A stretch of DNA of 41,344 nt from the IMG/VR virus record IMGVR_UViG_3300022538_000145, positions 1 to 41,344 of that record; one strand, given 5' to 3'. Shown here one piece after another: positions 15,124-41,344 of the stretch (the stretch's first letter is position 1; every line of letters begins with the position of its first letter). The translations under genes were made by a program, and so were the position numbers. The notes beneath the pieces were generated by a model, which made no database searches, was not told where the DNA came from, and saw only the letters and a program-made list of their open reading frames with translations. Source of the stretch: a virus.

Positions 15124-15141
15124 ACTCCTTTACTATCTGGT

Positions 15142-15920: not shown

Positions 15921-15986
15921 TCACTGTTTTAGTCTCAAGGACTCCATTCCTCACCGAGTATGTATTTTGCAATCCAACGAACAATC

Positions 15987-16313: not shown

Positions 16314-16531
16314 TATGAGCCTCCCCTCAACTTCTTATCCAGTTCTATCTTTCTGTCAAGGCAACCTTTACACCAGCCCACATCTATAAGGCAAGGTTGC
16401 CCACAAGCCCCGCATTCACTGCAATCATCTGGCAAGTATCCTCCACCGCTACCTCCACGAGATGGTGACATCTGCAAGCACATATATTCTGCCCGTTCGT
16501 CTTTGGTAAGGTTATTCCAATTTGGTGCCAT
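16313..16531 (-). CDS. Cys-rich small protein.
   Basis: 72 aa, with the cluster CSECGACGQPC...WCKGC. Confidence 0.55.
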   Translation of the reverse strand: MAPNWNNLTKDERAEYMCLQMSPSRGGSGGGYLPDDCSECGACGQPCLIDVGWCKGCLDRKIELDKKLRGGS

Positions 16532-16553
16532 TACTTACCTCCTGCCAGTTGAA

Positions 16554-16709
16554 TTACTCATCTTTCTTATATAAATCATATTGCCCTTCTTCCGCATCGC
16601 TATCATCTGACTTTCGTGTATAGTAGCCGATGTCTTTAAGCCTTCTGTTAAAAGCCTCAATGTCTTCAGGGAATAAACTTAAAAAATAAATCTCGCCTAA
16701 ATACATCAT
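16554..16709 (-). CDS. Small acidic protein (51 aa).
   Basis: I moved the start to ATG 16709 (MMYLGEIYF), which overlaps the upstream TGA as ATGA. The track start is 16784. Confidence 0.45.
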   Translation of the reverse strand: MMYLGEIYFLSLFPEDIEAFNRRLKDIGYYTRKSDDSDAEEGQYDLYKKDE

Positions 16710-17059
16710 TTCTCTCCTGCCAGTTGATTGAGGTTTTCCGATTGGGCTATTACAGTAGTGATAATATCTTGGACTTCTTCCCATTCAGTATCCCCAAATG
16801 CCTGTTGCATAATAAAGAATATCCTGCTGTCTCTACACTCGTCAAAGTGCTTGGCAACATTGCGGGCAAAATCTAATAAAGTCTGATAATCTTTCACCAC
16901 CATCTTCAATGTTTCCCGAAAGGTTGCCCGTGCTATAACTCTGTCCCATTCTGTAACCTCGTAGTCTGTATGTTTGTATAAATCCTTCTCAACCTTGTAC
17001 CGTTCTATTTGTATCTGTTCATCCGTAAGTATCTGCGGTTTAGTCAGTTGGTTTTTCAT
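16706..17059 (-). CDS. Hypothetical protein.
   Basis: 117-aa ORF with a 4-nt overlap onto the upstream gene. Confidence 0.6.
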   Translation of the reverse strand: MKNQLTKPQILTDEQIQIERYKVEKDLYKHTDYEVTEWDRVIARATFRETLKMVVKDYQTLLDFARNVAKHFDECRDSRIFFIMQQAFGDTEWEEVQDIITTVIAQSENLNQLAGEK

Positions 17060-17445
17060 TCTCTCTTCAGTACCTCCATCAGTTCATCTACTCCCCTGAC
17101 AATGGCATACCGGCAGTTGAACTTGCTAGCCTTCTTTTCAAACTCAAGCTGGACTGGGGCTTGCTTCCCCTTGCTACTCTTACACTCAATATAGGTAACA
17201 AAGACAACCGGAACCACCGGTCCCTTCTGTTTGCCCATATACTCAAGGTGTACCTCACCAGCTTGGTAGACAACGAAGTCTGCGGTCCCTGCCTCAGCCC
17301 CCTTTATCCGGCGTCTGCTACCACCACGAACCTCAATGAAGTCGCCGGCATTGAGGCGATTAAACATCAACTTACCTTGATTGGCAGCATACTGAAGATA
17401 GTCCTCAACGCCCTTCTTGACTTCAGCTTCGCTTAGGTTAATCAT
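17056..17445 (-). CDS. VRR-NUC domain nuclease.
   Basis: GTADFVVY ... VTYIECKSSKGKQAPVQLEF ... AIVRGVDEL fits the PD-(D/E)xK core D...ExK of VRR-NUC. Confidence 0.65.
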   Translation of the reverse strand: MINLSEAEVKKGVEDYLQYAANQGKLMFNRLNAGDFIEVRGGSRRRIKGAEAGTADFVVYQAGEVHLEYMGKQKGPVVPVVFVTYIECKSSKGKQAPVQLEFEKKASKFNCRYAIVRGVDELMEVLKRE

Positions 17446-17566
17446 TTTTTCTCCTGAAATGAAGTGCTACAAATATCCACAAGCCTATGTATAGCGTATT
17501 ATTCAGCCAAGCAATACCAAAAACCCACTCGGGCATCCCCTTCGTCAACCTGAAATTCCAACTCAT
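17438..17566 (-). CDS. Small membrane protein (42 aa); not in the track.
   Basis: Hand-translated as MSWNFRLTKGMPEWVFGIAWLNNTLYIGLWIFVALHFRRKND. It has an ATGA overlap with the upstream gene, and its 3' end overlaps the next start. Confidence 0.45.
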   Translation of the reverse strand: MSWNFRLTKGMPEWVFGIAWLNNTLYIGLWIFVALHFRRKND

Positions 17567-18366
17567 TCTTTCCTCCACGTTCGGTATTCCGGGGCCTCAA
17601 TGGTAACGTGCCAACTGGCTGTGAATCTCAGGAGCCGGCTGCCTATCCTGTGCTCATCATCACCGGGCAAGTTCTTCAGTTCTTTATTAGTAGTAACTAC
17701 CAATGGTAAATCGTTCACGCTCCGGTGGTCGATAATCATCATCAGCTTCTCCATCGCCCAGGGAGTAGGGACCTGAGCCCCGATATCATCGAGGACAAGG
17801 AGATCTACATTCATAATGAAGTTCAGCTTCAGGTCATAGGAATCCTCACCCTCTTTGCTATAACCCCGGCGCAGCTCATCGAGCATCATAGGGACCAGAA
17901 TGTACCGGGCCGGCTTACCTCGTTCTAACCAGCGCCGGCAGATGGCGACGGCCAGGTGACTCTTACCACGATCCGCCCTGCTTAGTAGTGATAGCCACCG
18001 GGTATCATCCTTCTCTTCAGCCAAAGCAAGAGCCGCATCCTTCGCTTCCTTCAGGCTGGGCCATCGCTTATCAACCTGGAAGTTCTCAAACGTCCACTTG
18101 GTAGTACCGGCTGGGAGTTCACACATCTTGATGAGCAAATCCCTTCGCTGCTTTAGTACCATATCCTTCATGCAGCCACAGGTGATAACCTGAGAGTAGT
18201 CTACCCGGCCATTCTCTACCGGGTGTACGACACCAGCTCCATGACAGATAAGGCAGTCGCTCTCTAATTCCTCTTCAGTCGATGGGTCCGGTTGTACTTG
18301 CTTTGAGGGCCTCGGTTGAGGTATCTCCAACTTTTCTAGTCCGCCCTCGCCTCGATTGCTCGTCAA
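17563..18366 (-). CDS. DnaC/IstB-like AAA+ helicase loader with an N-terminal zinc finger.
   Basis: Walker A-like RADRGKSHLAVAI and Walker B LLVLDDIG. The N-terminus carries CLICHGAG...CGC. The start is TTG, preceded by GAGGGGGTG 7 nt upstream. Confidence 0.7.
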   Translation of the reverse strand: MTSNRGEGGLEKLEIPQPRPSKQVQPDPSTEEELESDCLICHGAGVVHPVENGRVDYSQVITCGCMKDMVLKQRRDLLIKMCELPAGTTKWTFENFQVDKRWPSLKEAKDAALALAEEKDDTRWLSLLSRADRGKSHLAVAICRRWLERGKPARYILVPMMLDELRRGYSKEGEDSYDLKLNFIMNVDLLVLDDIGAQVPTPWAMEKLMMIIDHRSVNDLPLVVTTNKELKNLPGDDEHRIGSRLLRFTASWHVTIEAPEYRTWRKE

Positions 18367-19000
18367 GTGGATTCACCCCCTCAACTTTCCAGTCTTCCAG
18401 AATCTTCGCAATATAACTTATTGGTGCTCGAGCCTTATTCTTGACAGCCTCATCGGTGGCCTTCTCAACCCAGCCGTCCGGATAGTTATCGGCAAAATCT
18501 TTCAGGCGCATCAGGTCATTCGTAGTGAGCATACGCCGGGCCACTTCCTCGTAATACTTTATCATGCCGGCTACTTTCAGGTCGTCGGTTTCAGTAATCT
18601 CATTATTGGAGACAGCCGATAGAGGTAGGCTACCACCGGGGCGCTGAGGCAATTCAACCTTTCTCCTGGCATAAAGGGCAACGTGCTCATCAACGAAGTG
18701 CTGCACCCATATAATCTTCTTCCCCCACATTCCCTTATCTATCATATCGAGTGAGGCAAATGTTTCAAGTATCTGTTTTGCCTTCTCTTCCTTGACAAGA
18801 GTATATGTTAGCAGAAACAGCCAGCTACCCTCATCACTGTAGTCAAAAACGTGGCCTTCGGTCTTGCCTAGAATCTCTAGCATCTTGAACCAGAAAGCGT
18901 AGCCTTCATTCCCATACTGCGCTTCTACTATGGCAAGCGTCTTACTGTGATTGCAGTAGTGAGGGAAGTAATCGACTGTCTGCTTCTTTGGCCTAGCCAT
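18275..19000 (-). CDS. Replication initiation protein: DUF4373 (Lin1244-like) N-terminal domain plus a DnaD-like C-terminal domain.
   Basis: The N-terminal part is TVDYFPHYCNHSKTLAIVEAQYGNEGYAFWFKMLEIL. The C-terminal part is ISYIAKILEDWKVEGV. Confidence 0.75.
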   Translation of the reverse strand: MARPKKQTVDYFPHYCNHSKTLAIVEAQYGNEGYAFWFKMLEILGKTEGHVFDYSDEGSWLFLLTYTLVKEEKAKQILETFASLDMIDKGMWGKKIIWVQHFVDEHVALYARRKVELPQRPGGSLPLSAVSNNEITETDDLKVAGMIKYYEEVARRMLTTNDLMRLKDFADNYPDGWVEKATDEAVKNKARAPISYIAKILEDWKVEGVNPLDEQSRRGRTRKVGDTSTEALKASTTGPID

Positions 19001-19427
19001 TGAGAGCCCTCATATCTAAATACATTTGTGCTAGTTGTTCCCACCGGTATTGCTTATGTGCAAGGTGATACATATTAGAAAACTCACCCTTCGGCCAGTC
19101 TCCTATGATAATTAACTTGCCACCTTTACCCCGGATAAAGCCGGCCTCAAGGTGTGAATCCCGGCCGCTCGGTAGTACCAAGAGACAGCAGTTCGCCCAC
19201 ATAAGTCCGTCGAAGTCTATCTTGAAAGCCTTGCTTGAGTCCTCGAGTTCTAATGCGGTAATGCCATCATCGTCAGGAGTAGCTACGTCCTGCCACATAA
19301 ATATATGTTGCTTGTCGCCCTCTTCAGCGAAACAGTATACCTCTTGTTCAGCTATATTACGGAGTTGCCTCGCCAAGTCCTCGACTAACTGCCTATTCTT
19401 CCAGCTTGAAGCTATGTAGATTTTCAT
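18993..19427 (-). CDS. Nucleoside 2-deoxyribosyltransferase / DNPH1-like fold protein.
   Basis: MKIYIASSW at the N-terminus and VLPSGRDSHLEAGFIRGKGGKLIII match the pattern of that fold. The SD is GAGAGGA. Confidence 0.5.
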   Translation of the reverse strand: MKIYIASSWKNRQLVEDLARQLRNIAEQEVYCFAEEGDKQHIFMWQDVATPDDDGITALELEDSSKAFKIDFDGLMWANCCLLVLPSGRDSHLEAGFIRGKGGKLIIIGDWPKGEFSNMYHLAHKQYRWEQLAQMYLDMRALNG

Positions 19428-19445
19428 TGCTTATCCTCTCACCAC

Positions 19446-19468
19446 CGGGCAGGACCGGCTCCTGCCCG
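19446..19468 (-). other. Intercistronic GC-rich hairpin.
   Basis: CGGGCAGG pairs with CCTGCCCG (8-bp stem, 7-nt loop). It lies between the RecT-like and deoxyribosyltransferase-like genes. No U-tract follows. Confidence 0.5.
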
Positions 19469-19487
19469 ACAGTCAGGGTATAAACTG

Positions 19488-20615
19488 CTACTGCTCTTTC
19501 TCAAAATAATCTTTCAACTCATCGAACTGCCACTGGTGCAGTTCACTCAGCTTCCGGATATTCCAGCCCTTTTCCTTGAGACAGTATTGGCTCATTTCAG
19601 GAAGTCCCCAGCCCTTAATCGCCATCTGTTCGTAGATATACTTGAGCTGCTCGGCCTCAATGACAGTCTCATCCTTCTCGGCTGGCGGTGTAGGTTCAGG
19701 CTCGGGCTCAGTTTCCGGCTCCAATTCTGCCTGTTTCTTGCCTTTGGACTTCGGCTTCGGCTTCTCTTCCTCGATGACTGTGCCTTCGCCCTCGATTATC
19801 TCACCGGTTATCTGGTCAACATTCGGCACTTCAGCGTAGGCAGCGTCGATAACCTCGACTTGTGGTATGGGCTTACCAGGTAGCCGGTCCATTGCCTGAC
19901 GTTCTGATCGGATATTGGCCATATTCCGCTTCGTATTACCTTTGTCCATACCATAGGGATTCTCGTCTTTAGAGTATAGACCGAAGCCGATAGCCAGGTT
20001 ACCACCTTCCCCCTGAAGCTTAGTGACTGAAATGACATTTGCTTTGGCTTCATCGCTATCCTTGCCGAACTGCCTTTCAATTTCTTTCTCAGTGGCAGCT
20101 CGAGGGGTATCCTCAAGGAAAGAGAATTCACCTTTCAAATTGTGTGCCATCTTCCGGCTTGCCGGAATACCCACTACCATGACGTGCTTGCCTTTGAAGG
20201 GTATAAGGTAGACTTCCTTTGCCAGTGGGTGAAGCCCGAAGTCACGACAGAATATGGCGGTCCTGATAATCTCATTATCCGGCACATCAGGGTAAACCAG
20301 CTTCAGAATGTGCATGGCCTGTGGCTGAGTGAGTTGCCCCTGTCTTGGTATTGTGGCTAGTGCTGTTGAAGCACCCTGTCCTGTCTTCTTTTCCAATTCC
20401 ATTTCCCTCCTTATCTTAGATTCGTAGTCTTCTCTTGGCGGTTTGTATTCCCTTGCTATACCCTTATGCACCTGACCAGAGCAAGCAACGTAAGTACGAC
20501 CATCGAAAGTGTCTAAGTAAAGTGAGAGTTGCCTCCCACACTCAGCACAGACATTGTTCTGGCGTATCTTCTTCAGGTTCTCGTTGCTCTGGTCTTCAGG
20601 GTAATAGTGCATCAT
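19488..20615 (-). CDS. RecT-family-like single-strand annealing protein with an N-terminal zinc ribbon and an acidic, Pro-rich linker.
   Basis: The core FCRDFGLHPLAKEVYLIPFKGKHVMVVGIPASRKMAH ... NMANIRSERQAMDRL resembles RecT motifs. Confidence 0.55.
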   Translation of the reverse strand: MMHYYPEDQSNENLKKIRQNNVCAECGRQLSLYLDTFDGRTYVACSGQVHKGIAREYKPPREDYESKIRREMELEKKTGQGASTALATIPRQGQLTQPQAMHILKLVYPDVPDNEIIRTAIFCRDFGLHPLAKEVYLIPFKGKHVMVVGIPASRKMAHNLKGEFSFLEDTPRAATEKEIERQFGKDSDEAKANVISVTKLQGEGGNLAIGFGLYSKDENPYGMDKGNTKRNMANIRSERQAMDRLPGKPIPQVEVIDAAYAEVPNVDQITGEIIEGEGTVIEEEKPKPKSKGKKQAELEPETEPEPEPTPPAEKDETVIEAEQLKYIYEQMAIKGWGLPEMSQYCLKEKGWNIRKLSELHQWQFDELKDYFEKEQ

Positions 20616-27203: not shown

Positions 27204-30059
27204 TTATGCCAATCTAGCCAATCTAAAATCCATTAAATTTATTGTAAGGTCATTAGTTCCATCGCTTTGATGAGTAAACCAAATTCTGTCAGCAACGGAA
27301 ATAGCAACGTGGGCACCTCCTGATATTGAACCAACATCATTATTGGCAAATTTCCTCTTAGATGCCCCTTTAGTTATGATAGTGGTATTTACCATTGGGC
27401 AGAACAGGACTATTGAGCCAGCTCCACCGCCTTCTGATACCGAGCTATTCCAAGATATATCATACTCTCCAGTCGTGCCAGTACCAGCTAATAGGTAGTC
27501 GCCCATCTCGAAATCAGAAGCTCCAGCATCAGCGTTCCAAGTATCCGTAAAGTAAAAAGTATCATCGTCAACTCTGGTAATTTGGTGTATACCATTATAG
27601 TTATTGGGAGCGGTAGTTCCTCGGATTGTTATGATGTCATTTGTTACCAATCCATGACCAACACAAGTAGCTAGGATTGTACCAGCCACCGTCCCCGAAT
27701 AGTCGGCATAGGCTGTGATTGCCCCTGTAATACCGGCAACAAAAGAGAAGTCCTGAACGTCACCTGTGCTGAATCCAGTGAAAGCATGAGGCGTATCGGC
27801 CGTTTCTATAGTGGCTGTCTGGTTTGAAACGACAATCATTTCCCCGGTGTCAGCATCAAATACAGCAAGTTGCTTATCGTTGCCTTCATCATCGGTGAAG
27901 TAAGGATTGTTGGGAGTATCATTCTTTACCCAAAACTGCCCTTCACCAGCTACGTCAGCAGGAGCAGAGGCTTGTTCTCTTAACTTCAAAGTAATTGTGG
28001 CTACGTTGAGATCTGTCCATAAAGCCCCAGCACCAGAGAGGCTTAAAGCCTCATTCAGTCCAGCATTGTCAGCGATAAACCATTTCAGTATCCCTTCATA
28101 GGTAGCATTTGTGGGGTCGGCAATCAGGACACGCATGATGCCATATTCAGTCGTGGCTCCGGTTGATGTTCTCCCTGCACACTCCCAGATGGCAGCCTCA
28201 TCGTTGATTGCTGGCGACGCCGAAATGTGTTCTGTCCTAAGTTTGGCTCCCGGCACACCACCGCTGGTTGAGCGAATAAAAATGCCACCACTTCCTGCGG
28301 TAGTAGCGAAAACAATCGAGGCGGCACCCATATCAAATGTTCCAACAACGGTCGGTGAGGTTATTGTAACACCATTAATAGTTCCACCATTGATATCGAA
28401 GTTGCTACCCTCAATCTCATGTGCAGCACCAGTCAGTTTACCAGCAAGGGTAAGTGTGCCATAGAGAGTAACATTACCACTGGTATCTACTTTCAGCCTA
28501 TCTCCAGAAGCACCAGTGTTAGTCGTTTTCAGAAAAAAGTCTTTAGTTGCTGGATACCAAAGAACAGCGTTACCTACGCCATCTTCAACTTGTAAACCGC
28601 AGCTTACAACAGTTTCAGTTACACTACCAACTGCTAAACCTCGGCTTATAACAAGGTAAGTTCCATCATCCGCCAGAGTTGTGTCATTCTGAAAGATAAT
28701 ATCGTAGGTGAAAGGAGCAAGACCGCCACCCATATTCAGACCGGCAATCTCAATGGCAGCATCCATCGTCCGACCATTACCACCTACTGCCTCATTCCTT
28801 ATCAGTAAACCAATATCCTCAGTGGTTATAGTCTCATCGCTTCTAGTCTGCATATTGAGCAGTATGCCGTAGAGATTGGCAGCGTTCAGACCTGACCCCT
28901 GACTAATCTGGACTGTAAGACCCCTCACATCACCTGAGACTGTTGCTCCGCCGGCTGAGTAGTCAGCGTGGATTAAAGCTCCCTCGAGTTGGGCTGCATA
29001 TTTACCAGCTCCGCTTTTAGCCTCAAGGTAAGCACCCCTGACGTTAGCCCCTGCACTCGTAGCATTGCCAGTTACCCTAGACCGAATACCAGTTAGGTCT
29101 CCACTGATAACTCTAGAACCTAGCGTAATCCAGATGGAGTTGGTAGCCATTGTCTCAAGCGGAGTGTTGATGTAGATAGCCTGCTCATTAGTATTGAGAA
29201 TATCTGTTCCGCTTATCCGAATATGATAGTTCGCAGCAGCCGAAGGAGTCATATCAAGTGTTCCATCAAGGAAGGTAGTGCCAGTAACCTCAAGGTCGCC
29301 AGTAACCATCAAATCATCTTCTGAATTAAGGGAGTGCTGGGTAGTCTGAGCATCGCCAACCCTGATATAATCCCCCGAGACTCCAAGCAGTGTAGTCTTC
29401 GTTGCATCGTTAGAAATGTCCAGGACTTTTACGCCAGCGATGTAAATATCGACGGACCGCCCTGAAGCAGCCATAATAGCCGTATCTCCGGTCGAACCAT
29501 CAGCCCACAAGACCATCTGAGAGTGACCGCCCTTGTTCACATACATAGCGATATCGCCAGAGGCAGTCACATTCGCAATCATTAAGGAGTCAGCAGCTAT
29601 AGCCTGAGTTACAGGAGTGCCAACGAGAACACCAGCCAAAACGGTATTAGCACCTAGTATTGTGCTCCGATTGAGCATTGTAATATCACTATCCGTCCCC
29701 AGATGGACGTGCTTATCGTCAGCCAGTAATACCTCACCACCGATAACCGTTGCTTCAATGGTATTGACGGCTGTATTCAAGTCGGTCACGGACTTCGCCG
29801 TTATATTCAGGGCAATGTAAGCCTTATTCGGATGAGCAGCCGCAGACGTGCTCTGCTGGGCCCTCACGACCGTCAAGGTATCAGTAGACCGGTTGGTAAC
29901 CGATACTATCTCATCCTCAACCGTCAGGTGGAAAGGGTAGGTTGAAGGTAAGTTAGCACCTTCGCCAGCCGTTACTGTGAACGTGGTCGTGCTGTCATTG
30001 ACGGCAGCCGCCAGTTTGCTAAAAGCCCTGTTCTTCGGGACTAAAAATGTAGTAGCCAT
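27204..30059 (-). CDS. Tailspike or tail fibre protein (beta-helix-like repeats).
   Basis: 951 aa, rich in Gly, Thr, Ala and Asn, with repetitive strands such as VLAGVLVG and IAMYVNKGG. The N-terminal module is shared with the 30194..31033 product. The SD is AAGGGAG. Confidence 0.6.
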   Translation of the reverse strand: MATTFLVPKNRAFSKLAAAVNDSTTTFTVTAGEGANLPSTYPFHLTVEDEIVSVTNRSTDTLTVVRAQQSTSAAAHPNKAYIALNITAKSVTDLNTAVNTIEATVIGGEVLLADDKHVHLGTDSDITMLNRSTILGANTVLAGVLVGTPVTQAIAADSLMIANVTASGDIAMYVNKGGHSQMVLWADGSTGDTAIMAASGRSVDIYIAGVKVLDISNDATKTTLLGVSGDYIRVGDAQTTQHSLNSEDDLMVTGDLEVTGTTFLDGTLDMTPSAAANYHIRISGTDILNTNEQAIYINTPLETMATNSIWITLGSRVISGDLTGIRSRVTGNATSAGANVRGAYLEAKSGAGKYAAQLEGALIHADYSAGGATVSGDVRGLTVQISQGSGLNAANLYGILLNMQTRSDETITTEDIGLLIRNEAVGGNGRTMDAAIEIAGLNMGGGLAPFTYDIIFQNDTTLADDGTYLVISRGLAVGSVTETVVSCGLQVEDGVGNAVLWYPATKDFFLKTTNTGASGDRLKVDTSGNVTLYGTLTLAGKLTGAAHEIEGSNFDINGGTINGVTITSPTVVGTFDMGAASIVFATTAGSGGIFIRSTSGGVPGAKLRTEHISASPAINDEAAIWECAGRTSTGATTEYGIMRVLIADPTNATYEGILKWFIADNAGLNEALSLSGAGALWTDLNVATITLKLREQASAPADVAGEGQFWVKNDTPNNPYFTDDEGNDKQLAVFDADTGEMIVVSNQTATIETADTPHAFTGFSTGDVQDFSFVAGITGAITAYADYSGTVAGTILATCVGHGLVTNDIITIRGTTAPNNYNGIHQITRVDDDTFYFTDTWNADAGASDFEMGDYLLAGTGTTGEYDISWNSSVSEGGGAGSIVLFCPMVNTTIITKGASKRKFANNDVGSISGGAHVAISVADRIWFTHQSDGTNDLTINLMDFRLARLA

Positions 30060-32950: not shown

Positions 32951-34093
32951 TTATCCAGCCGTAGGTGCAGCGTTGGTAATGTCGGTGATTCGACCTAAGC
33001 CCCATTTGCTTCCAACGATGAGGTTGGTGTAGGAAGCAAGGCGCATCGCCCTACCGATATAGCCTTCGAGTTTGTCGAAGTATTCCAGATTGAAGAACTC
33101 TCCGTCTGTCTCGGTCTTACCAAACGCTACTTTGACACCAGGATCAATCTCGCCCAGGGTTGTCATCCCGAGCTTGACTGCGAAGATGGAGTACATTTTG
33201 GTTCCGGAAGTGTAAGGTGCTCTGGCGTCTCCGGAAGTTGTGCCCTGACCTGTGTTGACCTGTTCTGCCACCATAAAGTCGGAACGGATTATGGGCTTGT
33301 TGTCAAACATGAGTGTCCGTCCGCCAGCCTCATTTGTGGCGTAGCCAATCAGACCCAGGGCGCCGGCTGTATCAGCTTTCAGAGCAGCGATACCGAGTTC
33401 CCGGTATACCCGGTCAATCTGACGAGCAAGTGCAAAGGGCATCAGCCAGTAGTCGAAGCCATGCCTCAGTTCGTCGCTGATGATTCGCATATTTTCGAGT
33501 GATAGAGCCCCTTCACCCTCGTCGATATCCCAGGCTTGACCCCATTGGGTAGCTGCCCAAGCGTGAAGACCATCCATTGACAGGCCGGTGCCGTCGTAGG
33601 TGAAGTCGTCATAGATAATCTTCGAGCCGAGCTTCTTGGTCAAATCCCTCATGTTGCCCTCGAGCATCAATCTCTCGTAGTCGTTGACGGTCTGCCAGAT
33701 GGCGTTATCGTATTTATCCAGCTTCGTCATTATGTAGGCTATACGGAGAACTGCTGTCTGAGCATCGAAGGTAGCGCCCTCGCTGAATACTGTCGCTCCG
33801 CCCTGACCGATATCGGCAACGCTATCCTCAAGGTTCGTTGCTTCACGAAGCCATCGGATATATTCGCCGGTGTGGTTGGCCTGGACAAAGCCGATGATAT
33901 CAACGGGGTTGCCACGCTTCGCATTGTCGTCCACGACGCCAGGGATAAGCGTCGGGGTCGTTGCCTTCAGCACTTCAGCCAGGTTATTCCAGTAACCACC
34001 TGACAGAAGGCCCATCGCAAGCAAAATAGGCATAGCAAAGATGAATTGGGTAATGCCCCATGCTTGCCTGCATAAAGTTCTTGCTTTCCGCAT
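32951..34093 (-). CDS. Major capsid protein (HK97-fold-like).
   Basis: It follows the scaffold-like gene. The segments GALSLENMRIISDELRHGFDYWLMPFALARQI and MFDNKPIIRSDFM resemble HK97-family capsid patterns. A GGAGGG SD lies 8 nt upstream of ATG 34093. Confidence 0.7.
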   Translation of the reverse strand: MRKARTLCRQAWGITQFIFAMPILLAMGLLSGGYWNNLAEVLKATTPTLIPGVVDDNAKRGNPVDIIGFVQANHTGEYIRWLREATNLEDSVADIGQGGATVFSEGATFDAQTAVLRIAYIMTKLDKYDNAIWQTVNDYERLMLEGNMRDLTKKLGSKIIYDDFTYDGTGLSMDGLHAWAATQWGQAWDIDEGEGALSLENMRIISDELRHGFDYWLMPFALARQIDRVYRELGIAALKADTAGALGLIGYATNEAGGRTLMFDNKPIIRSDFMVAEQVNTGQGTTSGDARAPYTSGTKMYSIFAVKLGMTTLGEIDPGVKVAFGKTETDGEFFNLEYFDKLEGYIGRAMRLASYTNLIVGSKWGLGRITDITNAAPTAG

Positions 34094-34110: not shown

Positions 34111-34830
34111 TTATTTAGCTCCGGCTTTCGCCTTCGCCTTTTCGAGCATACTCTCTGATACGCTCTTGGAATCTCCCCCAGCAGATTTCGTAGAAGCAGG
34201 TTGTGTGGTCAGGCCCGGTGGTTTACCGGTAACAGGATCAATCTCCGGCGCAGCCTGAGCTTTAAGTAGTGTAGCTGCACTAGCCAGTCGCTTCTCATCG
34301 CCATCTGGAACAAGCTCTTCCAGTTTTGCTTTATCAACGCCTGCGTTCATAGCTGCCACTTGGATATTAAGAGAAGTCGTGGCTTTGGTGAGTGCGTCTT
34401 GCCCAACTTTAAGGGTATCAGCCGTCTTCTTTTGTTCGGCTTCAATGCCTTTCTGCCTTATTTCCTCTCTGGCTTGCGCTTGTTTGACTCTTAGCGATGT
34501 CAGGGCTTCTGGATTGTCCTTGTTTGCCGCAGCTTCAGCTTCGTTTTGGGCTCTGGTAATCTCGGTCATCTGAGTAGTGAGGGTAGTTACATGGTCGGTT
34601 ACCGTCTGGACCTCAGTTTTAAGAAGTTTGTTCTCCGCCTCGGCTGCTTCAGCCCGGGTCTTCTGCTCCCGGCCATCCGCCGAAAGAGCATCCTCCACCA
34701 GCTTTTTAGTTTCTGCTCCTGTATACTGCTTGCCTTCCTCAATGCCTGAAGTTAGCTTTTCAAGAGCAGAAGGTTGGCTCAAGTTTTCGGTCGAGCCTTT
34801 GTCCTGTTCATTTCCAGCTCCGTCCAACAT
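34111..34830 (-). CDS. Scaffolding protein (coiled coil rich in Ala, Glu, Lys and Gln).
   Basis: 239 aa of low-complexity helical sequence, located directly upstream of the capsid gene. The SD is AAGGGGAGG. Confidence 0.55.
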   Translation of the reverse strand: MLDGAGNEQDKGSTENLSQPSALEKLTSGIEEGKQYTGAETKKLVEDALSADGREQKTRAEAAEAENKLLKTEVQTVTDHVTTLTTQMTEITRAQNEAEAAANKDNPEALTSLRVKQAQAREEIRQKGIEAEQKKTADTLKVGQDALTKATTSLNIQVAAMNAGVDKAKLEELVPDGDEKRLASAATLLKAQAAPEIDPVTGKPPGLTTQPASTKSAGGDSKSVSESMLEKAKAKAGAK

Positions 34831-34884: not shown

Positions 34885-37800
34885 TTACTCCCTTAATGCC
34901 TTCAATCGCTCTTCGATTGCACCGCCTCTTTCGGCCCACTCTTCTATAAAGCGCTCATAGGCAGTCAAGTTCTCACGCCTGACCTTCTCAGAGACCGGCG
35001 TGTAGTCGAACTTCAATACCAGCCAGGCGTCGAGTGCCGGGTTAGCCATCCTGAAGTCGTCCTTTGCCTTCAGATGAGGTTGTGCCAGATAGTCCAGATA
35101 AAGGTTGAAGACTTCCCGGCTGGGTACTTTGCTGAAATCCTTTTTCTCATTGCCAAACTGATCCCGGTAGACGTCCCGGTAGAACTCGATATTCTCAATA
35201 AGGAACCAGTCATCGGCATACCACAGGTCAGTACCGGTATCCAGCTTCCAGTTATCCGGCTTGCCCTCACCGATGATTGTATAGTAGCCAACGTAGGCTT
35301 CGATATATTGCTCCGGAACGAACTTGCCATACGCATTTCTCCGGAGCTCGGCCAGGCCGAAGGCGGTATATTTTCCCTCATTATCAAATCGCATGGAGTT
35401 TCTTTCTCGTTCCCTTTCGTCCTCATCAACGATATAGTGCTCAGATTCATTATCGGCAAGGCCCTCAAGTCTATCGAAGTCAGCTTTATTCTCATCGTAG
35501 ATATTGTCGTATTGCACCGCCGGCACGTCTTCAGGCTTGGGTATATCGATGCCGCCAACGTCGTGCATGGCTGTAGCGAATTCAGGATTATCAATCAGGA
35601 AGCGCTCCTGACGCATACCTTTGGCTTCCAGTTCGTTATAGGCGACAAAGTTCTCAATCTGGTCTTCCGGGAATGTCTCACCGGTCAGCTTGTTTTTCAT
35701 CTGATAGGCTTGGCGGCGGCGCCGGTCCATGCGGTATTCCGGATTGGCAGCCAGATAAGCAACTCTGGCCTCGGAGTCATCGCCATCGATAGCGTTGTAC
35801 TCATTGTCCTGAGTACGCCACCGGACGGTTATCCTGAGTGCTGGAACATTCCAAGTACTTCCATCATCGGTCAGTAGGCCACCGTCTAAGGCTTTATCGA
35901 ATACGTCCTGATGGTCCACCATCCATATCTTTGCCTCAGCACTTTGAGGTTCTACAGTGCCTAACAGCCGGCCTCTCTCAGCCCACAAATCGGCTTCCGT
36001 ATCGGTGAAGCCAGCCTTATAAGCCTCGACTTTCTCAAGGTCATCGAAGTATTCGCTATCAGGAAACTCCTTGAGAAACGCTGCCCGGCGCTTGTCCATA
36101 TCATCGATGTAAGTCTCCGGAGAATTCTTATCGCCCAGCTCATTCCAGTATGCATCCTCTTTGACGTTCTTGGACTGCAGCCGTATCGCCGGCTCCACCC
36201 ACTCGTCGTAATGGCCACGCTCTTCCTCAGTGGCCAGGCCGCCCCGGTCCTTCAGCATACTTTCCTCAAGTGCCTTTTCATAGGCTTTCGGGTTCTCAAA
36301 TGCCCATTCCTTTACCAGAGGACTGCCGCCACTATACTCGCTTACCAGTCGGCCACGTTCTACCCACGCCTCTATCTGAACATCATCGAAGCCGGCAGAT
36401 AGCGCCTCAGTCCTCATTTCATCATCGAAGAATTCACTGTCCGGGAATTCTTTATAGAAGGCAGTACGCCGGTCATCCTCATCTTCGATATACTCCGGCG
36501 AGTCCTTATCCAGCAACGTCTTGTAATACTCCCTTTCAGCCCGGTTCTTGACCTTCAGTTCGTAGTATCGCTCCGGCTGAGGGGGTTTATTCAGGGCATC
36601 GGCACCCATCTTCAGTGCCTCATCCTGATACCATTTAAGCAACTCCGGGTCCCGAGCCAGCACTATCATTGCCTCAGCACTCATGGCGCCGAACTCCTGG
36701 ACCGCCGCTTCCCTTTCAAAGTAGTTATCTGCAGACGCTTCAGACGGCAATATCATCGTGGGTAGTCCGTTATCCGGAATGTCAAGGATTTTCTGTAGCG
36801 TCAGGAATTCTTCATAAGCAGCCTTGCTCATTAGTTCAGCCTGTCCCCATATAGCCAACTGTGCGTTTTCGCTCGGGTGACTACGCAGATAATCAAGGCG
36901 AGGATTGATACCAATCTCAGCCTCATGCTTTTCAAGGAACTCGGCCTTCAGATCCTCATCAGTAATAGAGTGATATTCCATAAGCAAAGAGAATTGCTGC
37001 TGAGAGATATTGCCTAGATAGACTTTATTATGTCTCTCGTCAGCATCCCATTCCTTCAGCTTTTCCTCGTCACCGGTGGCTACAAGCGCTTCCCTTTCAC
37101 GCCACATCTGGTAATACTGAGCGAAGGTAGTACCCTTAGCCGCATCAGCGTTTACCTTAAAGAGTTTCTCATTCGGTAAGATACTCTGTCTCTCTTTGAT
37201 AGCCCGGGCCTCAGCGATTGCCCGGATATATTCCGGGAAGCCCTTAGTTGCTGTCTTAGTTGCCGGGTCAACGCCCTTGAACTGCGATGCCGTATCCGCC
37301 CAAAAGTCCTCGGTAGTATAGTATGGTGTGCGTACTCCGTAAGGAAGACTGTCAGTGTACTTCGGCAAGCCCAGCTTAGGAAAGTTATCCACCCAATCGC
37401 CGGTGTAAGTCTGGACGCCGGCGCCAACTATAGCCGGTATAGCTACCTCTAAAGCGGTAACCGGGTCGTCCCTGTACGCTTCGTAGATATCCCAAACAGC
37501 AAACGGAGCTATACGTTCCGCCCACTGTTCCTTATTCTTTACGTCAACCTCTTCACCCACAAAGTTCCTGCCCTTCCAGAAATCAAGCAGTAAAGACATT
37601 AGCGGAGCCGCCTTGCCCCTGAGTAGGTTCTGGATGAGGTCAAGGGGATCGGGCTTATACTCGGCACCAGTCACACTTGAGACGCCTGTGCCGGTAATAG
37701 CCCGGGTAAAGAAGACGAGGAACTGCCGGAAGCCACCCCAGGGGTCCACTCTGGTCTTGCCAATCCTGATTGACATATACTCAGCGCTTCTCGGGTCCCT

Positions 37801-40800
37801 TTCTACTTCCCACCAGCCGGCCATAGCACCCATTAGAACAATTCCGCCAAGCGTACTGACGAATAGCGCAGCGTTCTTCCATGCCTCAGTTCTTACCCGG
37901 GGATTGGCATTTAGCAAGTCAGTTATGGAAAGTATCCTACCTATTGCCATCCGGGGAGCGAAGAACATGGCGCTTAATGCCGGCGCAGCTATCTGGTATT
38001 TACCTAGGGAGCCTCGAGCTGTGAAGTTGGCAAGGCTCTTAGAGAAGGCAATCATTTCTTGCTTTATATCAAAAGCCTGACCCGGCTTCAACGTCTTTTT
38101 ACCGGAAGCGTACTGTGCACTGAGCTTGAGCATAGCCTTATAGTAGTTCTTGAATATCAGCCAGTTATGCTCATTAGTGCCAGTTTCAAAGGCTCTTTGA
38201 GATACCCTGACATGAGGTAACCAAGCCGTAAATCTCGGCAGTATTCGCTCAACACCCTTTGCATAACCGAATTCCTCAGTACCTCGCCACTGCCCGGTTC
38301 CCTTCTGTATAATGAGTGGCCGGAGAAAGTCGCCGCCAGCCTCTTCACATACCTCATAAAACTGGTAAAGCGGATCTTGAGTAATTCTCGACCATGAAGC
38401 CTCAGCCGACTTCTGACTCCATATCGCCTTCCATGCCTCGACGTTGGCCAGGGCAAAGGATATCGGATGGCTGACAATAAGCGGTGCTTGCTGTCTCCAA
38501 AACGAGAAGTCGAATGATGCCTTGTTAGCTCTAAGGAAGTTACCGATATCTACCGGTGCCATCCCCAGTTCTTTAAGAGCCCTGATAACTATATCCGTAG
38601 CAGGAGTCGGCCAGAGTGGGAGTTCCTTAATAGCATTATCAATCGGAACTTCGTACTTTGCCACTGGTGGCAGTGGATAAGCCCTATCCCGGGCCTCCAT
38701 TCTCTTTAGCTGGAACTCGTCGAATGTAATCTTACCCTCGGCTAACTGCTGACTCAGATCTAATTCTGATATAGCAAAGGCCAGATCGCCCTCAGTCCTC
38801 AAATCCTGGACAACCGGTATCTCAAACGCAGGCTCCATCATAGTTCTGTAGCCGAAAGGTATGCCGGATAGTGTTCTCAGGTACTCGGCCATGTCAGCAT
38901 CGATCGGCACATAATCCCGGCCTATCTCATGGAAGACGCCCTCGACTACTTCCTCTATTGTCCGGCCCTCTTTTGAAATCGTATCAAGTGCTTTCATCAC
39001 CTGCGGCTGCTCACCAAAGACGTAGTTCAGTCTATCCCAGGCGGAACCGCCTTCAGGGAATAGAATACTGCCGGGGCCTTTCTTACGAGGTATGGCCCGG
39101 GCATGGCGTATCAGCTTTCCGGCCTCATCTCTCTGAGGTAAAGCGTTGACCAGAGCGGTATAGGTGGCCGCCATTTCAAAGGGATAATCCCTCATCTTTT
39201 CGGCCACCTGTTGAAAAAGTACATTCCGCATCTGGTCGGAAAGGTCATCGAGGTAGTCAGTTTCGACAACTGGCAATTTACCGGAGAGAGTTTCTTTAAT
39301 CGCTTGCTTTATGGCCTCTTCAGCCGGCATACCCTCTTGAATCATAAGTTCCTGGGCCCGGGCCTTCAGATTCTCGGCTTGGCCTGTCTTCGTCTCACGC
39401 CTTAACTCTTCAGTCAGCGCCCAGGCGTCGATCGCTTTGGCTCCCATCACATAATTACCAAAGACCTCTAAGGTTCTAGTACGCTGAGCCGGTGTCAGCA
39501 TCCTTTCACCAGTGGGAGATAGAACGATATCCTTTGGCTTTATCTCAGGTACAGACCTGGATATCTCTGCTGCCGAAACCTTTACAGCCTTTATCTTTCT
39601 CTTTGCCTCACGAATACGCATGACTCGCTCGGCAATCTCATCAGGACTGAGCCCGAATTCTTTGGTCAAATCATCGAGGGCTTCATCTTTTGGAACTTTG
39701 TTATATTCAGGCACTCCCTTCTGAGCGTACTTGGCAAAACTATGGTCAGGATATAACTGCTCAGCCTGCTTAACAGTAAAGTATTCAGGGAAGGTCTGCT
39801 CCCTCAATGAGATAAAGAAATCAAGCCCAACCTTTTTACCGGCAATCTGTATTCTTTTTCGGGCAACCGGGTCAGTCGCCAAGAATTCCCTTAGCCCTGC
39901 AACCTCCGCCTCAGCCTCATAAGCCGCAGCCGCTTGCTCATATTCCTTGAGCTTTAGCTGGTCTTCCATCGATATCTGAGTAATCCTGCCTCTTCCGGGT
40001 GGCCGGACTACTCTCTCTTCGCCAAACATACCACGCTGAACACCAGCTTCGGGCATACCGGGTTCGGCAAATAACGCCCTCTTCTCTGCCAGCTTTCGCT
40101 CCGCTTCGGCAACGGACTGAGCGTAGAAGGTGGTCCCTGTCACCGGGTCGGTGAACTGCATCCCCAAACCTTCCTGAATTCCGTCATACCGAATCCCTAC
40201 TTCTTTGGCTATCTGTGCGCCAGTCTCGGTGATGGGGGCTACTGGCTCAACCTTTAATGCTTGGTATTCCTCCTTTAGTATTCTCGTTTGCTCTTTAATA
40301 TTTAACGGAAAACCAGTACCTTTTAACGACTCTTTATGTGAGGCTAGTCCTGCCTTAACATACTCGGCTTCACTAGCTTTACTTACGTCTATACCATATT
40401 TGATTTGAGCCCTGCCCTCGATAGTTGGTTCGCCTCTTAATGCTGCTATTTTCTGGTCAACTTCAAATATCTCCGCAGAAACATCCTGACCCCTGCGTTC
40501 CCTCACCAGTAGCGCTTTTCGCTTTTTCGCAAGTTCGGCTTCTGACTCTTCAGGAACTAACCTGAGAGAACCTCTCTCGTCCCTGACCACCTTCTTCAGT
40601 TGCTCAAACCAGTTACCCTTTTCGTCCTTCAGCCAGCCCCGGGCTTTCTTCTGGATTTCACTTAGCCCTGATTGCTCAAGAGGACTGACCATACGGACCG
40701 ATACGCCGGCAGCAAGACCCGATGGCAGCAGGGTAGCCACCGCCGTCTTGACCGCTATATCGGGTAGGTTATCTAATATGCTTCTATTCTCATCGTAGAA

Positions 40801-41344
40801 GCCTACAGCCACGTTGCTGACGACTTCCTGTGCTACCTCAGTGGCTACCTCGGAAAACTGGACAATAGTAAAGTTACGCCCAAACTTGAGAATAGTCTCT
40901 GCCAGTGTCTTCTTGCTCAACTCTGAGATAGCCCTACGCTTGAACTGGCCAAATAGCAATGGGCTTATCTGTCTCAGTAGCGGTATCCTGCCGGCACTTT
41001 CAAGCAGGCCCATGATGGCTCCGGATATCGCCGCCAGTTCAGCAGCTTTATCTTCGGGAGCCCCAGCGTTTACCAGATCCTCATAGACTGCCTGGCCCTC
41101 GACCGGCGCCATAATAGCCGCCGTACCCAACATCATCGGCAGACCAACACCGCCGGTAGCTACCGCCATAGCGGAAGCCGTGATAATAAACGGCATAATA
41201 TTTGCCAGTTCATAGATATAATACTTATAGTCTTTTAGTAACTCTGGATGCTGGTAGGCCCCTTCTTGATAAGCAATCGGGGCTGCCATCTCCGGATTCT
41301 TGGCTACCCATTTCTGATATTCCTCTTTGTTCTTGCCATAGAGA
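34885..41344 (-). CDS. Giant virion-associated protein, main and C-terminal part. The frame stays open to the right window edge and continues at 1490..1.
   Basis: The track ORF 34885..41289 is 2134 aa, and the frame stays open upstream to 41344. Hydrophobic segments lie at about 41101-41202 (IMPFIITASAMAVATGGVGLPMMLGTAAIMAPV) and about 37810-37872 (AALFVSTLGGIVLMGAMAGWW). A tandem ~105-aa duplication lies at 35865-36575. Confidence 0.85.
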   Translation of the reverse strand, partial: LYGKNKEEYQKWVAKNPEMAAPIAYQEGAYQHPELLKDYKYYIYELANIMPFIITASAMAVATGGVGLPMMLGTAAIMAPVEGQAVYEDLVNAGAPEDKAAELAAISGAIMGLLESAGRIPLLRQISPLLFGQFKRRAISELSKKTLAETILKFGRNFTIVQFSEVATEVAQEVVSNVAVGFYDENRSILDNLPDIAVKTAVATLLPSGLAAGVSVRMVSPLEQSGLSEIQKKARGWLKDEKGNWFEQLKKVVRDERGSLRLVPEESEAELAKKRKALLVRERRGQDVSAEIFEVDQKIAALRGEPTIEGRAQIKYGIDVSKASEAEYVKAGLASHKESLKGTGFPLNIKEQTRILKEEYQALKVEPVAPITETGAQIAKEVGIRYDGIQEGLGMQFTDPVTGTTFYAQSVAEAERKLAEKRALFAEPGMPEAGVQRGMFGEERVVRPPGRGRITQISMEDQLKLKEYEQAAAAYEAEAEVAGLREFLATDPVARKRIQIAGKKVGLDFFISLREQTFPEYFTVKQAEQLYPDHSFAKYAQKGVPEYNKVPKDEALDDLTKEFGLSPDEIAERVMRIREAKRKIKAVKVSAAEISRSVPEIKPKDIVLSPTGERMLTPAQRTRTLEVFGNYVMGAKAIDAWALTEELRRETKTGQAENLKARAQELMIQEGMPAEEAIKQAIKETLSGKLPVVETDYLDDLSDQMRNVLFQQVAEKMRDYPFEMAATYTALVNALPQRDEAGKLIRHARAIPRKKGPGSILFPEGGSAWDRLNYVFGEQPQVMKALDTISKEGRTIEEVVEGVFHEIGRDYVPIDADMAEYLRTLSGIPFGYRTMMEPAFEIPVVQDLRTEGDLAFAISELDLSQQLAEGKITFDEFQLKRMEARDRAYPLPPVAKYEVPIDNAIKELPLWPTPATDIVIRALKELGMAPVDIGNFLRANKASFDFSFWRQQAPLIVSHPISFALANVEAWKAIWSQKSAEASWSRITQDPLYQFYEVCEEAGGDFLRPLIIQKGTGQWRGTEEFGYAKGVERILPRFTAWLPHVRVSQRAFETGTNEHNWLIFKNYYKAMLKLSAQYASGKKTLKPGQAFDIKQEMIAFSKSLANFTARGSLGKYQIAAPALSAMFFAPRMAIGRILSITDLLNANPRVRTEAWKNAALFVSTLGGIVLMGAMAGWWEVERDPRSAEYMSIRIGKTRVDPWGGFRQFLVFFTRAITGTGVSSVTGAEYKPDPLDLIQNLLRGKAAPLMSLLLDFWKGRNFVGEEVDVKNKEQWAERIAPFAVWDIYEAYRDDPVTALEVAIPAIVGAGVQTYTGDWVDNFPKLGLPKYTDSLPYGVRTPYYTTEDFWADTASQFKGVDPATKTATKGFPEYIRAIAEARAIKERQSILPNEKLFKVNADAAKGTTFAQYYQMWREREALVATGDEEKLKEWDADERHNKVYLGNISQQQFSLLMEYHSITDEDLKAEFLEKHEAEIGINPRLDYLRSHPSENAQLAIWGQAELMSKAAYEEFLTLQKILDIPDNGLPTMILPSEASADNYFEREAAVQEFGAMSAEAMIVLARDPELLKWYQDEALKMGADALNKPPQPERYYELKVKNRAEREYYKTLLDKDSPEYIEDEDDRRTAFYKEFPDSEFFDDEMRTEALSAGFDDVQIEAWVERGRLVSEYSGGSPLVKEWAFENPKAYEKALEESMLKDRGGLATEEERGHYDEWVEPAIRLQSKNVKEDAYWNELGDKNSPETYIDDMDKRRAAFLKEFPDSEYFDDLEKVEAYKAGFTDTEADLWAERGRLLGTVEPQSAEAKIWMVDHQDVFDKALDGGLLTDDGSTWNVPALRITVRWRTQDNEYNAIDGDDSEARVAYLAANPEYRMDRRRRQAYQMKNKLTGETFPEDQIENFVAYNELEAKGMRQERFLIDNPEFATAMHDVGGIDIPKPEDVPAVQYDNIYDENKADFDRLEGLADNESEHYIVDEDERERERNSMRFDNEGKYTAFGLAELRRNAYGKFVPEQYIEAYVGYYTIIGEGKPDNWKLDTGTDLWYADDWFLIENIEFYRDVYRDQFGNEKKDFSKVPSREVFNLYLDYLAQPHLKAKDDFRMANPALDAWLVLKFDYTPVSEKVRRENLTAYERFIEEWAERGGAIEERLKALRE
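41204..41344. repeat. Terminal direct repeat copy 2 (identical to 1..141).
   Basis: See copy 1. Confidence 0.95.

Follow-up and report, generated by a model that had tools for sequence, protein, structure and literature searches.

Here we report that the 41,344-nucleotide window examined, positions 1 to 41,344 of the IMG/VR virus record IMGVR_UViG_3300022538_000145, encodes a single giant protein of 2,602 amino acids (aa) whose gene takes up 19.0% of the genome and lies in the head operon, between a portal candidate and the gene for the major capsid protein (MCP). We interpret this giant, with a probability of roughly 0.6, as an encapsidated and ejected multi-module internal virion protein of a probably short-tailed phage. 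This interpretation is favoured because the gene keeps a strict head-operon position next to the portal gene, because it is translationally coupled to the head genes, because its central core, composed of two modules that we designate CA and CB, is exchanged in relatives for a cassette whose homologues occupy the T7 gp16 slot of pelagiphage HTVC204P and the last structural gene of Bacillus phage Page, and because CB is fused to an N-terminus of the T7 gp16 type in a distant relative.

Bases 1-141 of the window are an exact duplicate of bases 41204-41344. This terminal overlap of 141 bp is the signature of a circular or terminally redundant assembly, and the true genome is therefore a circle of 41,203 bp. 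Once the overlap is collapsed, a single open reading frame (ORF) on the minus strand crosses the junction, beginning with the ATG at 1490 and ending with the stop codon at 34885-34887; it has 2,602 codons (7,809 nt) and predicts a protein of 295.8 kDa with a pI of 4.84. In window coordinates, the 5′ part of the ORF (aa 1 to ~497, with the conserved N-terminus) occupies 1-1490 and the 3′ part (aa ~497-2602), which continues from base 1 on the circle, occupies 34885-41203, both on the minus strand. The ORF list made from the linear window splits this largest gene into a listed ORF of 2,134 aa and an unlisted 5′ part running off the end. An earlier reading of the window made from its letters alone (the sequence-only reading) had nevertheless put the product at 468 + 2134 aa and about 19% of the genome and had advised calling the ORF again on the circularised sequence, and the new call returns exactly this protein as a single minus-strand ORF. 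Its hand translation across the junction holds as regards one uninterrupted ORF on the collapsed circle; the peptide that it read immediately before MAAPIAYQEG, however, sits within the duplicated 141-bp stretch, so that the overlap must be collapsed before reading across. Terminal overlaps of circular contigs thus need collapsing before gene calling, or else, as here, the largest gene appears as two pieces.

No earlier start codon follows the in-frame stop that precedes the ATG at 1490-1488. A GGTGA motif lies a few bases before this ATG, which is confirmed as the start by the N-terminal sequence MVxxxxxKTGYWRxNP, which is common to the giant and its homologues (21 sequences in the alignment). 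About 20 such homologues, of 2,143-3,011 aa, were found, most of them on contigs of ~40-42 kb. In addition, the JGI contig Ga0247426_1000458 (27.7 kb) is 100% identical to the window over 21,770 bp, spans the junction without a gap and carries an identical 2,602-aa gene call. Judged from this independent contig, the homologues and the shared N-terminus, the giant ORF is a genuine gene and no assembly artefact.

The minus strand reads, in order, a DUF1353 gene, a Zn-ribbon gene, the large terminase gene (TerL), the portal candidate, ORFs of 56 and 44 aa, the giant, a 239-aa ORF and the MCP gene, beyond which lies a run of mostly unannotated structural ORFs, including one for a 951-aa protein with a tail-fibre N-terminus. 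The portal candidate (596 aa; 1833-3623, minus strand), directly upstream of the giant, has no database match; its homologues, among them 41 ORFs in related viral loci, occupy the same slot in relatives, and it is also homologous to the gene upstream of stand-alone CA-CB proteins (9e-10 and 5e-6). Between it and the giant are the two small ORFs (1494-1833, minus strand; 56 aa at 1663-1833 and 44 aa at 1494-1628). The stop of the 44-aa ORF sits 3 nt ahead of the giant ATG, and the giant is translationally coupled to the head genes. On the other side, the 239-aa ORF (34111-34830, minus strand), which has no database match, is a candidate scaffold by its position, and the MCP (380 aa; 32951-34093, minus strand) matches phrog_212 (3e-5), while the syntenic protein of the related locus L016 matches Pfam Phage_capsid_4.

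We surveyed this gene order in 80 IMG/VR loci encoding the CB module, 27 of which have a module ORF of at least 1,800 aa and enough flanking sequence. A portal homologue lies at most 750 bp upstream of the giant in 25 of these 27 giant loci. The reversed portal-giant-MCP order occurs in none of the 80 loci, and a detectable MCP homologue is always downstream. The same succession of TerL, portal, small ORF(s), giant, ~240-aa ORF and MCP is found on contigs of close relatives, of relatives carrying an LPD38-type cassette and of those encoding stand-alone CA-CB proteins. The location proposed by the sequence-only reading, after the portal and two tiny ORFs and before a scaffold candidate and MCP, is thus confirmed, and the search for homologues with conserved synteny that it had recommended shows the portal-giant-MCP order to be kept in the same 25 loci.

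Searched as a single sequence, the giant has no match in Pfam (E<0.1) or PHROGs and none in NCBIfam above cutoff, and PDB sequences gave no match by phmmer, with a family hidden Markov model (HMM) or with an HMM built from 39 distant relatives. Lysozyme, peptidase, polymerase, ART and tape-measure domains were not detectable in it. These results agree with the sequence-only reading, which had recognised no lysozyme, peptidase, polymerase or ADP-ribosyltransferase motif and had suspected an uncharacterised family: there is indeed no entry for it in Pfam, PHROGs, NCBIfam or PDB, and the profile and structure searches it had suggested return no significant Pfam, PHROG or Foldseek-PDB match.

The modules of the giant, whose borders were set by family alignment and BLAST mapping, are all encoded on the minus strand. 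The first 114 residues (1149-1490) consist of ~30 conserved aa followed by a variable acidic stretch (pI 4.05), in which the run EEEEVEVEEEE falls at aa 35-45. None of the 21 family members lacks the N1 domain (aa 115-380; 351-1148), which AlphaFold2 models better than any other part outside the solenoid (alpha/beta; predicted local distance difference test, pLDDT, 70-83); we consider it a candidate capsid-incorporation domain. In the alignment-defined N2 region (aa 381-720), a first part (aa 381 to ~497; 1-350) is followed by a helical, Ala/Gly-rich second part (aa ~497-720; 40534-41203), which is swapped for unrelated sequence in the family members P0014, P0020 and P0021. Within N2 lies a first hydrophobic segment (aa 496-521, LANIMPFIITASAMAVATGGVGLPMM; 41131-41208), conserved in the family and with ~1% charged residues. 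A variable, basic linker of low alignment occupancy (aa 721-875; 40069-40533; pI 8.7) then leads to the CA module (aa 876-1344; 38662-40068) and to the basic CB module (aa 1345-1840; 37174-38661; pI 9.1), the core of the superfamily described below. CB contains the near-invariant residues D1395, S1397, R1400, Q1401, R1458, E1473, N1507, D1650, W1652, G1654 and G1757, and because its near-invariant polar residues are kept across 230 diverse sequences, they suggest a catalytic or tightly constrained site. The second hydrophobic segment (aa 1607-1630, AALFVSTLGGIVLMGAMAGWW; 37804-37875) also belongs to CB; it is conserved in the family and in the 230 distant relatives, with a mean Kyte-Doolittle value of 1.36 and 6% charged residues across these sequences, and is followed by the motif DPRS...R-G-TR-DPWGG.

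The C-terminal ~760 aa are very acidic. They include the all-alpha C1 module (aa 1841-2160; 36214-37173; pLDDT ~80) and the C2 module (aa 2281-2602; 34888-35853), both acidic, C2 being the most conserved part of the family (at most 77% mean identity per 40-aa block). A helical unit of ~107 aa is duplicated in tandem (aa ~2045-2150 and ~2171-2278; 35860-36561), with a score of 241 against a shuffled maximum of 60; its second copy is missing in most relatives, and aa 2161-2280 form a query-specific duplicated unit. AlphaFold2 models were obtained for two 1,200-aa tiles from 21-sequence alignments (mean pLDDT 59 and 64). According to their secondary structure the giant is mostly alpha-helical, and aa ~1814-2474 are modelled as an all-alpha array (pLDDT ~80). 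The sequence-only reading had described an acidic N-terminal region and two membrane-span-like hydrophobic segments, which correspond to the acidic run and to the two conserved segments above; the C-terminal repeated helical modules that it had also described stand as far as the all-alpha array is concerned, with the tandem duplication as the one clear repeat.

Foldseek searches of the two tiles against PDB returned nothing at E<=1e-3 and only generic solenoids and transmembrane bundles at E>=0.05; these negative results say little on CB and N2, because both were modelled at pLDDT <50. Against BFVD, the best four matches comprise three polyvalent/LPD proteins and one MuF-C protein (the latter at 3e-3), all borderline (E 1e-3 to 2.5e-2, template-modelling score <0.1), and we take them as only a hint.

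Great length, a mostly helical fold and hydrophobic segments rich in Gly and Ala could also suit a tail tape measure protein, here one from a long-tailed phage whose genes are arranged unusually, and BFVD does list tape-measure proteins at E 0.07-0.7. We find this explanation extremely improbable. There is no tape-measure Pfam or PHROG match, the gene lies between portal and MCP and not among tail genes in 25 of 27 loci, shorter relatives (1,000-1,300 aa) fill the same head slot, no tube or sheath family is matched among the 20 ORFs of the structural region, most of which match nothing, and the C-terminus is a solenoid-like helical array rather than a single long coiled coil. A 144-aa ORF matching a PHROG labelled 'tail assembly chaperone' might be added in its favour; we rejected this support, the match being that of the DUF1353 protein encoded upstream of TerL, ~4 kb from the giant. 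It is also the sole chaperone label in a genome where the sequence-only reading had recognised no tail tube, sheath, chaperone or other tape-measure candidate.

Comparison of the relatives reveals that the giant is a mosaic, in which the central CA-CB core is set between a conserved N-terminal frame and an acidic, all-alpha C-terminal one, and that N1, N2, CA1, CA-CB, LPD38, C1 and C2 combine in many arrangements. The family members P0017-P0021 keep N1 and the C1-C2 frame (P0017-19 also N2) and have CA-CB replaced; in P0017-19 the replacement cassette contains Pfam LPD38 (PF18857, 'large polyvalent protein associated domain 38'; 2e-42). Another protein, P0176, fuses the first ~170 aa of CA (aa 876-1045; 53% identity) to the LPD38 cassette. 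One and the same frame seems to accept either CA-CB or the LPD38 cassette. Among cultured phages, the LPD38 cassette has matches in giant proteins, namely gp40 of pelagiphage HTVC204P, encoded after tail tubular A/B and an 'internal virion protein' and just before the tail fibre, which is the slot of T7 gp16, and gp20 of Bacillus phage Page, the product of the last structural gene before the holin. A second link to ejection proteins is provided by the distant relative P0022 (locus L003; 1,783 aa), encoded by the last gene of its structural operon, in which an SLT transglycosylase N-terminus of the gp16 type is joined to a GGDEF domain (4e-10) and a C-terminal CB; this N-terminus matches the T7 gp16 transglycosylase (2e-10) and phrog_342, 'internal virion protein with endolysin domain' (6e-11). 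A GGDEF (diguanylate-cyclase-like) domain is a surprise in what is presumed to be an internal virion protein, and an Acb2/Tad1-like anti-defence gene lies near that of P0022.

These observations bear on the possibility that the giant is a head component that is not ejected, for example a minor head protein like MuF/SPP1 gp7, an internal core or scaffold, or a size-determining protein, which would be incorporated into the procapsid beside the portal, would stay in the head or be degraded, and would play no part at the host envelope. Its gene is located exactly where MuF/gp7-type minor head proteins lie, between portal and scaffold/MCP, the protein has no lytic domain, and its long acidic alpha-solenoid C-terminus could be structural or DNA-organising. 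Nevertheless, it contains no MuF domain at E<0.1, and a passive scaffold would not readily account for the conserved transmembrane-like helices or for the invariant polar residues in CB. Moreover, cassette exchange with ejection-slot modules and the fusion of CB to a gp16-type N-terminus point to a role in entry, and the methyltransferase and ART domains added in relatives are only sensible if the protein reaches the host. A purely structural role consequently appears unlikely to us.

The relatives carry several effector-type additions: SAM methyltransferase, GGDEF, ART-PolyVal and GNAT domains. For instance, the closest distinct relative, P0002 (L023, IMGVR_UViG_3300033064_003586; 73% identical, 3,011 aa), has an extra C-terminal SAM-dependent methyltransferase (Methyltransf_11, 5.5e-23) that the giant lacks. 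Domains of the polyvalent type are found only in relatives, as LPD38 in P0017-19 and P0176, the methyltransferase in P0002 and ART-PolyVal in one of 39 distant relatives. Such additions would fit an anti-defence effector carrier of the kind proposed for polyvalent proteins (Iyer et al. 2017), packaged and injected to counter restriction or further host defences, for instance by mimicking DNA through its acidity or by coating DNA, without forming a conduit for DNA. The very acidic C-terminal region, the rapid shuffling of modules, as expected in an arms race, the polyvalent proteins among the top BFVD matches and the fact that the 2,198-aa polyvalent protein of PTXU04 is essential also speak for it. 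On the other hand, the giant itself has neither a known polyvalent-protein domain nor a processing peptidase, and the high conservation of CA-CB across ~10,000 clusters, hydrophobic helix included, better suits a basic entry function than a counter-defence that evolves fast. As the full explanation we regard such a role as rather improbable; it overlaps with ejection of an internal virion protein, and both could be true together.

The CB module defines a superfamily that extends far beyond the giants. An exhaustive profile search with CB yielded 9,981 cluster representatives (clusters at 50% identity) at E<=1e-3, including 3,737 at E<=1e-30. Among 169 proteins, the most frequent architecture is CA-CB alone (57 proteins of ~1,000-1,300 aa), followed by CA-CB-C1-C2 (25) and N1-N2-CA-CB-C1-C2 (22). 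Stand-alone CA-CB proteins occupy a slot in which the genes are ordered TerL, portal, a 284-aa gene (or genes of 108 + 409 aa), CA-CB, a gene of ~190-250 aa and MCP; N1 was compared with the product of the separate 284/409-aa gene as a possible fused copy of it, and only a motif of ~28 residues matches (E 8e-4 in a 13-sequence database). No PHROG covers the stand-alone proteins. In a Pfam scan of 39 distant module-bearing proteins, single members match HHH, GNAT and ART-PolyVal and there is otherwise almost nothing; four further distant module-bearing proteins likewise contain almost no known domains.

Cultured phages are nearly absent from this superfamily. Only one of 50,697 deposited phage genomes has a CB match, a weak one in the uncultured record MW202497, whose 1,582-aa protein is encoded after capsid and 'stabilization' genes and before an amidase gene; tblastn of this protein and of P0107 against deposited phages provided no bridge to cultured ones. 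A scan of one genome per prokaryotic species found nine loci in metagenome-assembled genomes (MAGs), the closest of which (51%, 47% and 35% identity) are in Dehalococcoidia/Dehalococcoidales bins. Because the closest MAG loci, including that designated L007, are in such bins, sequence relatedness places the phage lineage of the giant with Chloroflexota hosts. L007 (positions 3800-19600 of the 84-kb contig DUEE01000026.1) is an element inserted between TyrRS and FAD-synthetase genes and could be satellite-like or a prophage remnant. Its 2,207-aa giant has CA, CB, C1 and C2 in common with ours and an unrelated N-terminal stretch of ~730 aa, which hints that the N module may be what ties a giant to a particular capsid.

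The L007 element, which encodes a tyrosine integrase and a primase-helicase and has no head genes, is compatible with yet another explanation, namely that the giant is a late protein outside the virion, for example an enzyme of the cytoplasm or membrane that serves host takeover or assembly, whose gene merely happens to lie in the head operon. The enzyme-like pattern of invariant polar residues in CB could be read in the same way. However, neither the strict portal-adjacent position across a very large superfamily, nor the translational coupling to head genes, nor the homology links to proteins in structural slots would be expected of such a protein, and the investment of 19% of a 41-kb genome argues for an essential function in the virion. 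This explanation is, in our opinion, very unlikely.

Several further observations support ejection of the giant as an internal virion protein. The effector-type additions in relatives favour it, as do the conserved transmembrane-like helices in an otherwise helical protein, recalling T7 gp16, which is alpha-helical with two putative transmembrane regions (PMC8954989). There is also precedent for virion-borne giants of about one fifth of a podophage genome, such as gp69 of JC1 (4,515 aa, 22% of the genome), which was detected by virion mass spectrometry (PMC9144972). Another virion-borne giant, gp47 of phi24B (2,811 aa, with LPD38), is abundant in virions and invisible in the cryo-EM (cryo-electron microscopy) map. 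Finally, the best BFVD matches, at borderline scores, are polyvalent, LPD or MuF-C proteins, and the lack of any tape-measure, tail-tube or sheath match together with the Bcep22-like tail-fibre N-terminus is consistent with the probably short tail that we infer from these missing matches and from this one weak match.

A number of results weigh against this interpretation. Module HMMs of the giant compared with T7 gp13-16 gave only E>0.09 in an 8-sequence database and BLASTP gave nothing, and no similarity was detectable between its modules and HTVC204P gp40/41, Page gp20 or the phi24B giant. Ejection proteins were likewise not returned by Foldseek against PDB or by PDB-sequence searches, the P22 proteins having been left out of the direct comparison. 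The suggestion of the sequence-only reading that the giant fuses functions split over several proteins in T7-like and P22-like phages is thus an analogy and no homology, because none of its modules resembles gp14, gp15 or gp16. No MuF (PF04233), LPD or processing metallopeptidase domain is found in the giant at Pfam E<0.1, LPD38 included, and CA-CB has no detectable homology to the LPD38-type cassette (hhalign probability 2.7% with the family profile and 0.4% with a deep profile). We consequently rejected, as not demonstrable, the idea that CA-CB is a diverged LPD38, and the functional equivalence of the two cassettes is suggested by their shared position. Other unfavourable points are the position of the gene, which differs from that of the ejection genes of T7, P22 and phi24B, the relative in L007 without head genes, the poor models of CB and N2 and the many unannotated structural ORFs, because of which a long tail is not strictly excluded.

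If the giant is indeed an ejected internal virion protein, infection might proceed as follows. The 296-kDa protein would be synthesised along with the head proteins and enter the procapsid at the portal or close to it; at infection it would be expelled via the portal and tail channel. N1 and the very conserved acidic C-terminal frame would serve incorporation and packing in the capsid. After unfolding and refolding, the two conserved hydrophobic helices (aa 496-521 and 1607-1630) would become inserted in the host envelope, as happens with T7 gp16, and CB, in which Asp, Ser, Arg, Gln, Glu and Asn residues are invariant, would contribute an activity directed at the envelope or at DNA entry. The central cassette is exchangeable between related phages, and effector domains are sometimes added, as in Aravind-type polyvalent proteins. 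The gene, its mosaic of modules, its conserved position, its conserved hydrophobic and polar features and its links to proteins in internal-virion-protein slots are observed; encapsidation, ejection, membrane insertion and the roles given to individual modules are inferred.

Other genes of the window deserve mention. TerL (531 aa from its first start codon; 3654-5249, minus strand) matches phrog_5902 (6e-23) and gives 545 tblastn matches to phage terminases. Its start is ambiguous: the longest ORF, of 531 aa, begins at a TTG, the JGI call on the identical contig is 479 aa, and the TerL proteins of relatives measure ~478-496 aa. The best TerL relative is that of the archaeal virus vir525, near which no equivalent of the giant gene is present. 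Upstream of TerL and the Zn-ribbon gene, the 144-aa DUF1353 protein (5455-5889, minus strand; Pfam 2e-28) belongs to a family found in phages of many kinds, for which the label 'tail assembly chaperone' used in PHROGs and many GenBank records looks unreliable; in the window its gene is distant from the tail genes. Only the first ~100 aa of the 951-aa protein (27204-30059, minus strand) have matches, to tail-fibre N-termini of Burkholderia phages DC1 and BcepIL02 and of Sinorhizobium phage PBC5 (E ~6e-5 to 3e-4); nothing matches the other ~850 aa. A 296-aa protein (8319-9209, plus strand) matches phrog_6247, 'DNA topoisomerase', over its full length (2e-113) and no Pfam family at E<=0.01; such a small topoisomerase-like gene is unusual for a 41-kb phage. 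A protein with a PAPS-reductase domain (11351-12127, minus strand; Pfam 4e-22) and a DUF5131 protein (13158-13940, minus strand; 6e-39, plus a weak radical-SAM signal) may work as a pair in modifying DNA or nucleotides. Replication and recombination genes form a module at 17563-20615 (minus strand), whose products resemble a DnaC helicase loader (2e-37), a DnaD replication initiator (4e-24) and a RecT/Bet annealing protein (2.5e-6). The scanned ORFs of the window included neither a DNA polymerase nor an integrase.

To get across the host envelope, short-tailed phages must assemble a channel out of proteins carried in the capsid. In the few systems that are understood (T7, P22/Sf6 and N4), this task is, to our knowledge, divided among several proteins, and each of these systems belongs to cultured phages of Proteobacteria. 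The family found here is very large, has essentially no cultured members and keeps to one position in the head operon; its giant form may combine the ejectosome roles in one 296-kDa chain with swappable cassettes. A broader and clearly more tentative proposal, which we think possible without leaning towards it, is that CA-CB is the hallmark of a large undescribed class of internal virion proteins, encoded beside the portal gene, in uncultured phages of Dehalococcoidia and other poorly cultivated phyla. The giant would then represent a whole podovirus ejectosome, with its anchoring, membrane insertion and catalytic step, built as a fixed N/C frame around an exchangeable CA-CB or LPD38 cassette, and elements of the L007 type may carry a copy with a different N-terminus to ride a helper capsid. 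With the family described here, a large block of metagenomic genes counted as viral 'dark matter' could be annotated (~10,000 clusters for CB alone), and the LPD38 domain of polyvalent proteins would gain a functional context. The cell envelopes of Dehalococcoidia are unusual, and the invariant D/S/R/Q/E/N residues and conserved hydrophobic helix of CB offer a target for studying phage entry into hosts of this kind.

Among known systems, the polyvalent proteins (Iyer, Burroughs, Anand, de Souza & Aravind 2017, PMC5512222) are giant and modular, their genes accompany those of the virion, and packaging and injection are predicted for them. The giant resembles them, for example phi24B gp47 (LPD5, LPD1, LPD38 and MuF-C) and PTXU04 gp25, in its size, its modularity and its encoding with virion genes, here beside the portal-terminase packaging and head genes. 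Its modules are also exchanged between orthologues, and relatives with the same frame carry the phage-specific LPD38 and have enzymatic domains added at their ends. Polyvalent proteins combine at least two functionally different catalogued domains in one polypeptide; the giant differs in that searches of Pfam (E<0.1), PHROG and NCBIfam found none of these domains in it. The phi24B giant, moreover, is encoded at the far end of the late region and not beside the portal gene, and has no similarity to ours.

Ejection proteins of the T7 type are needed by short-tailed phages to bridge the envelope (PMC8954989). The giant shares with T7 gp14, gp15 and gp16 and with HTVC204P gp40 an alpha-helical character and conserved transmembrane-like segments. 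Further likenesses lie in its family, where the alternative LPD38 cassette is homologous to HTVC204P gp40 of the gp16 slot and P0022 fuses CB to a transglycosylase. In contrast to the T7 set, the giant has no transglycosylase, is a single polypeptide of 2,602 aa instead of three proteins, and is encoded between portal and scaffold/MCP and not between the tail tubular (adaptor/nozzle) and tail-fibre genes. The gene position immediately downstream of the portal and before scaffold/MCP is that of MuF/SPP1 gp7, and MuF proteins are head components that often have C-terminal effector domains; the giant differs in that it lacks Phage_Mu_F (PF04233) at E<0.1 and is 5-8 times larger. The DarB-like giants of Bcep22-like phages, which are described as podoviruses in their literature (PMC9144972), offer a parallel in which one large protein takes up about one fifth of a podophage genome and, in the case of JC1 gp69, is virion-associated. 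Both genomes also have a PAPS-reductase-like gene, and the N-terminus of the 951-aa tail-fibre protein resembles those of DC1 and BcepIL02. Here the differences are that our giant has no helicase or methylase domain, that the DarB-like gene stands at the end of the morphogenesis module, and that comparison of the query with Bcep22-like phages gave no tblastn match at E<=1e-3.

Sequence thus places the giant in none of the LPD38, MuF, gp14/15/16, DarB or tape-measure groups. The idea of a giant packaged protein is established, and the CA-CB superfamily, its fixed portal-adjacent slot and its frame-plus-cassette organisation appear to be undescribed. In presumed function, the giant comes closest to polyvalent proteins and podovirus ejection proteins.

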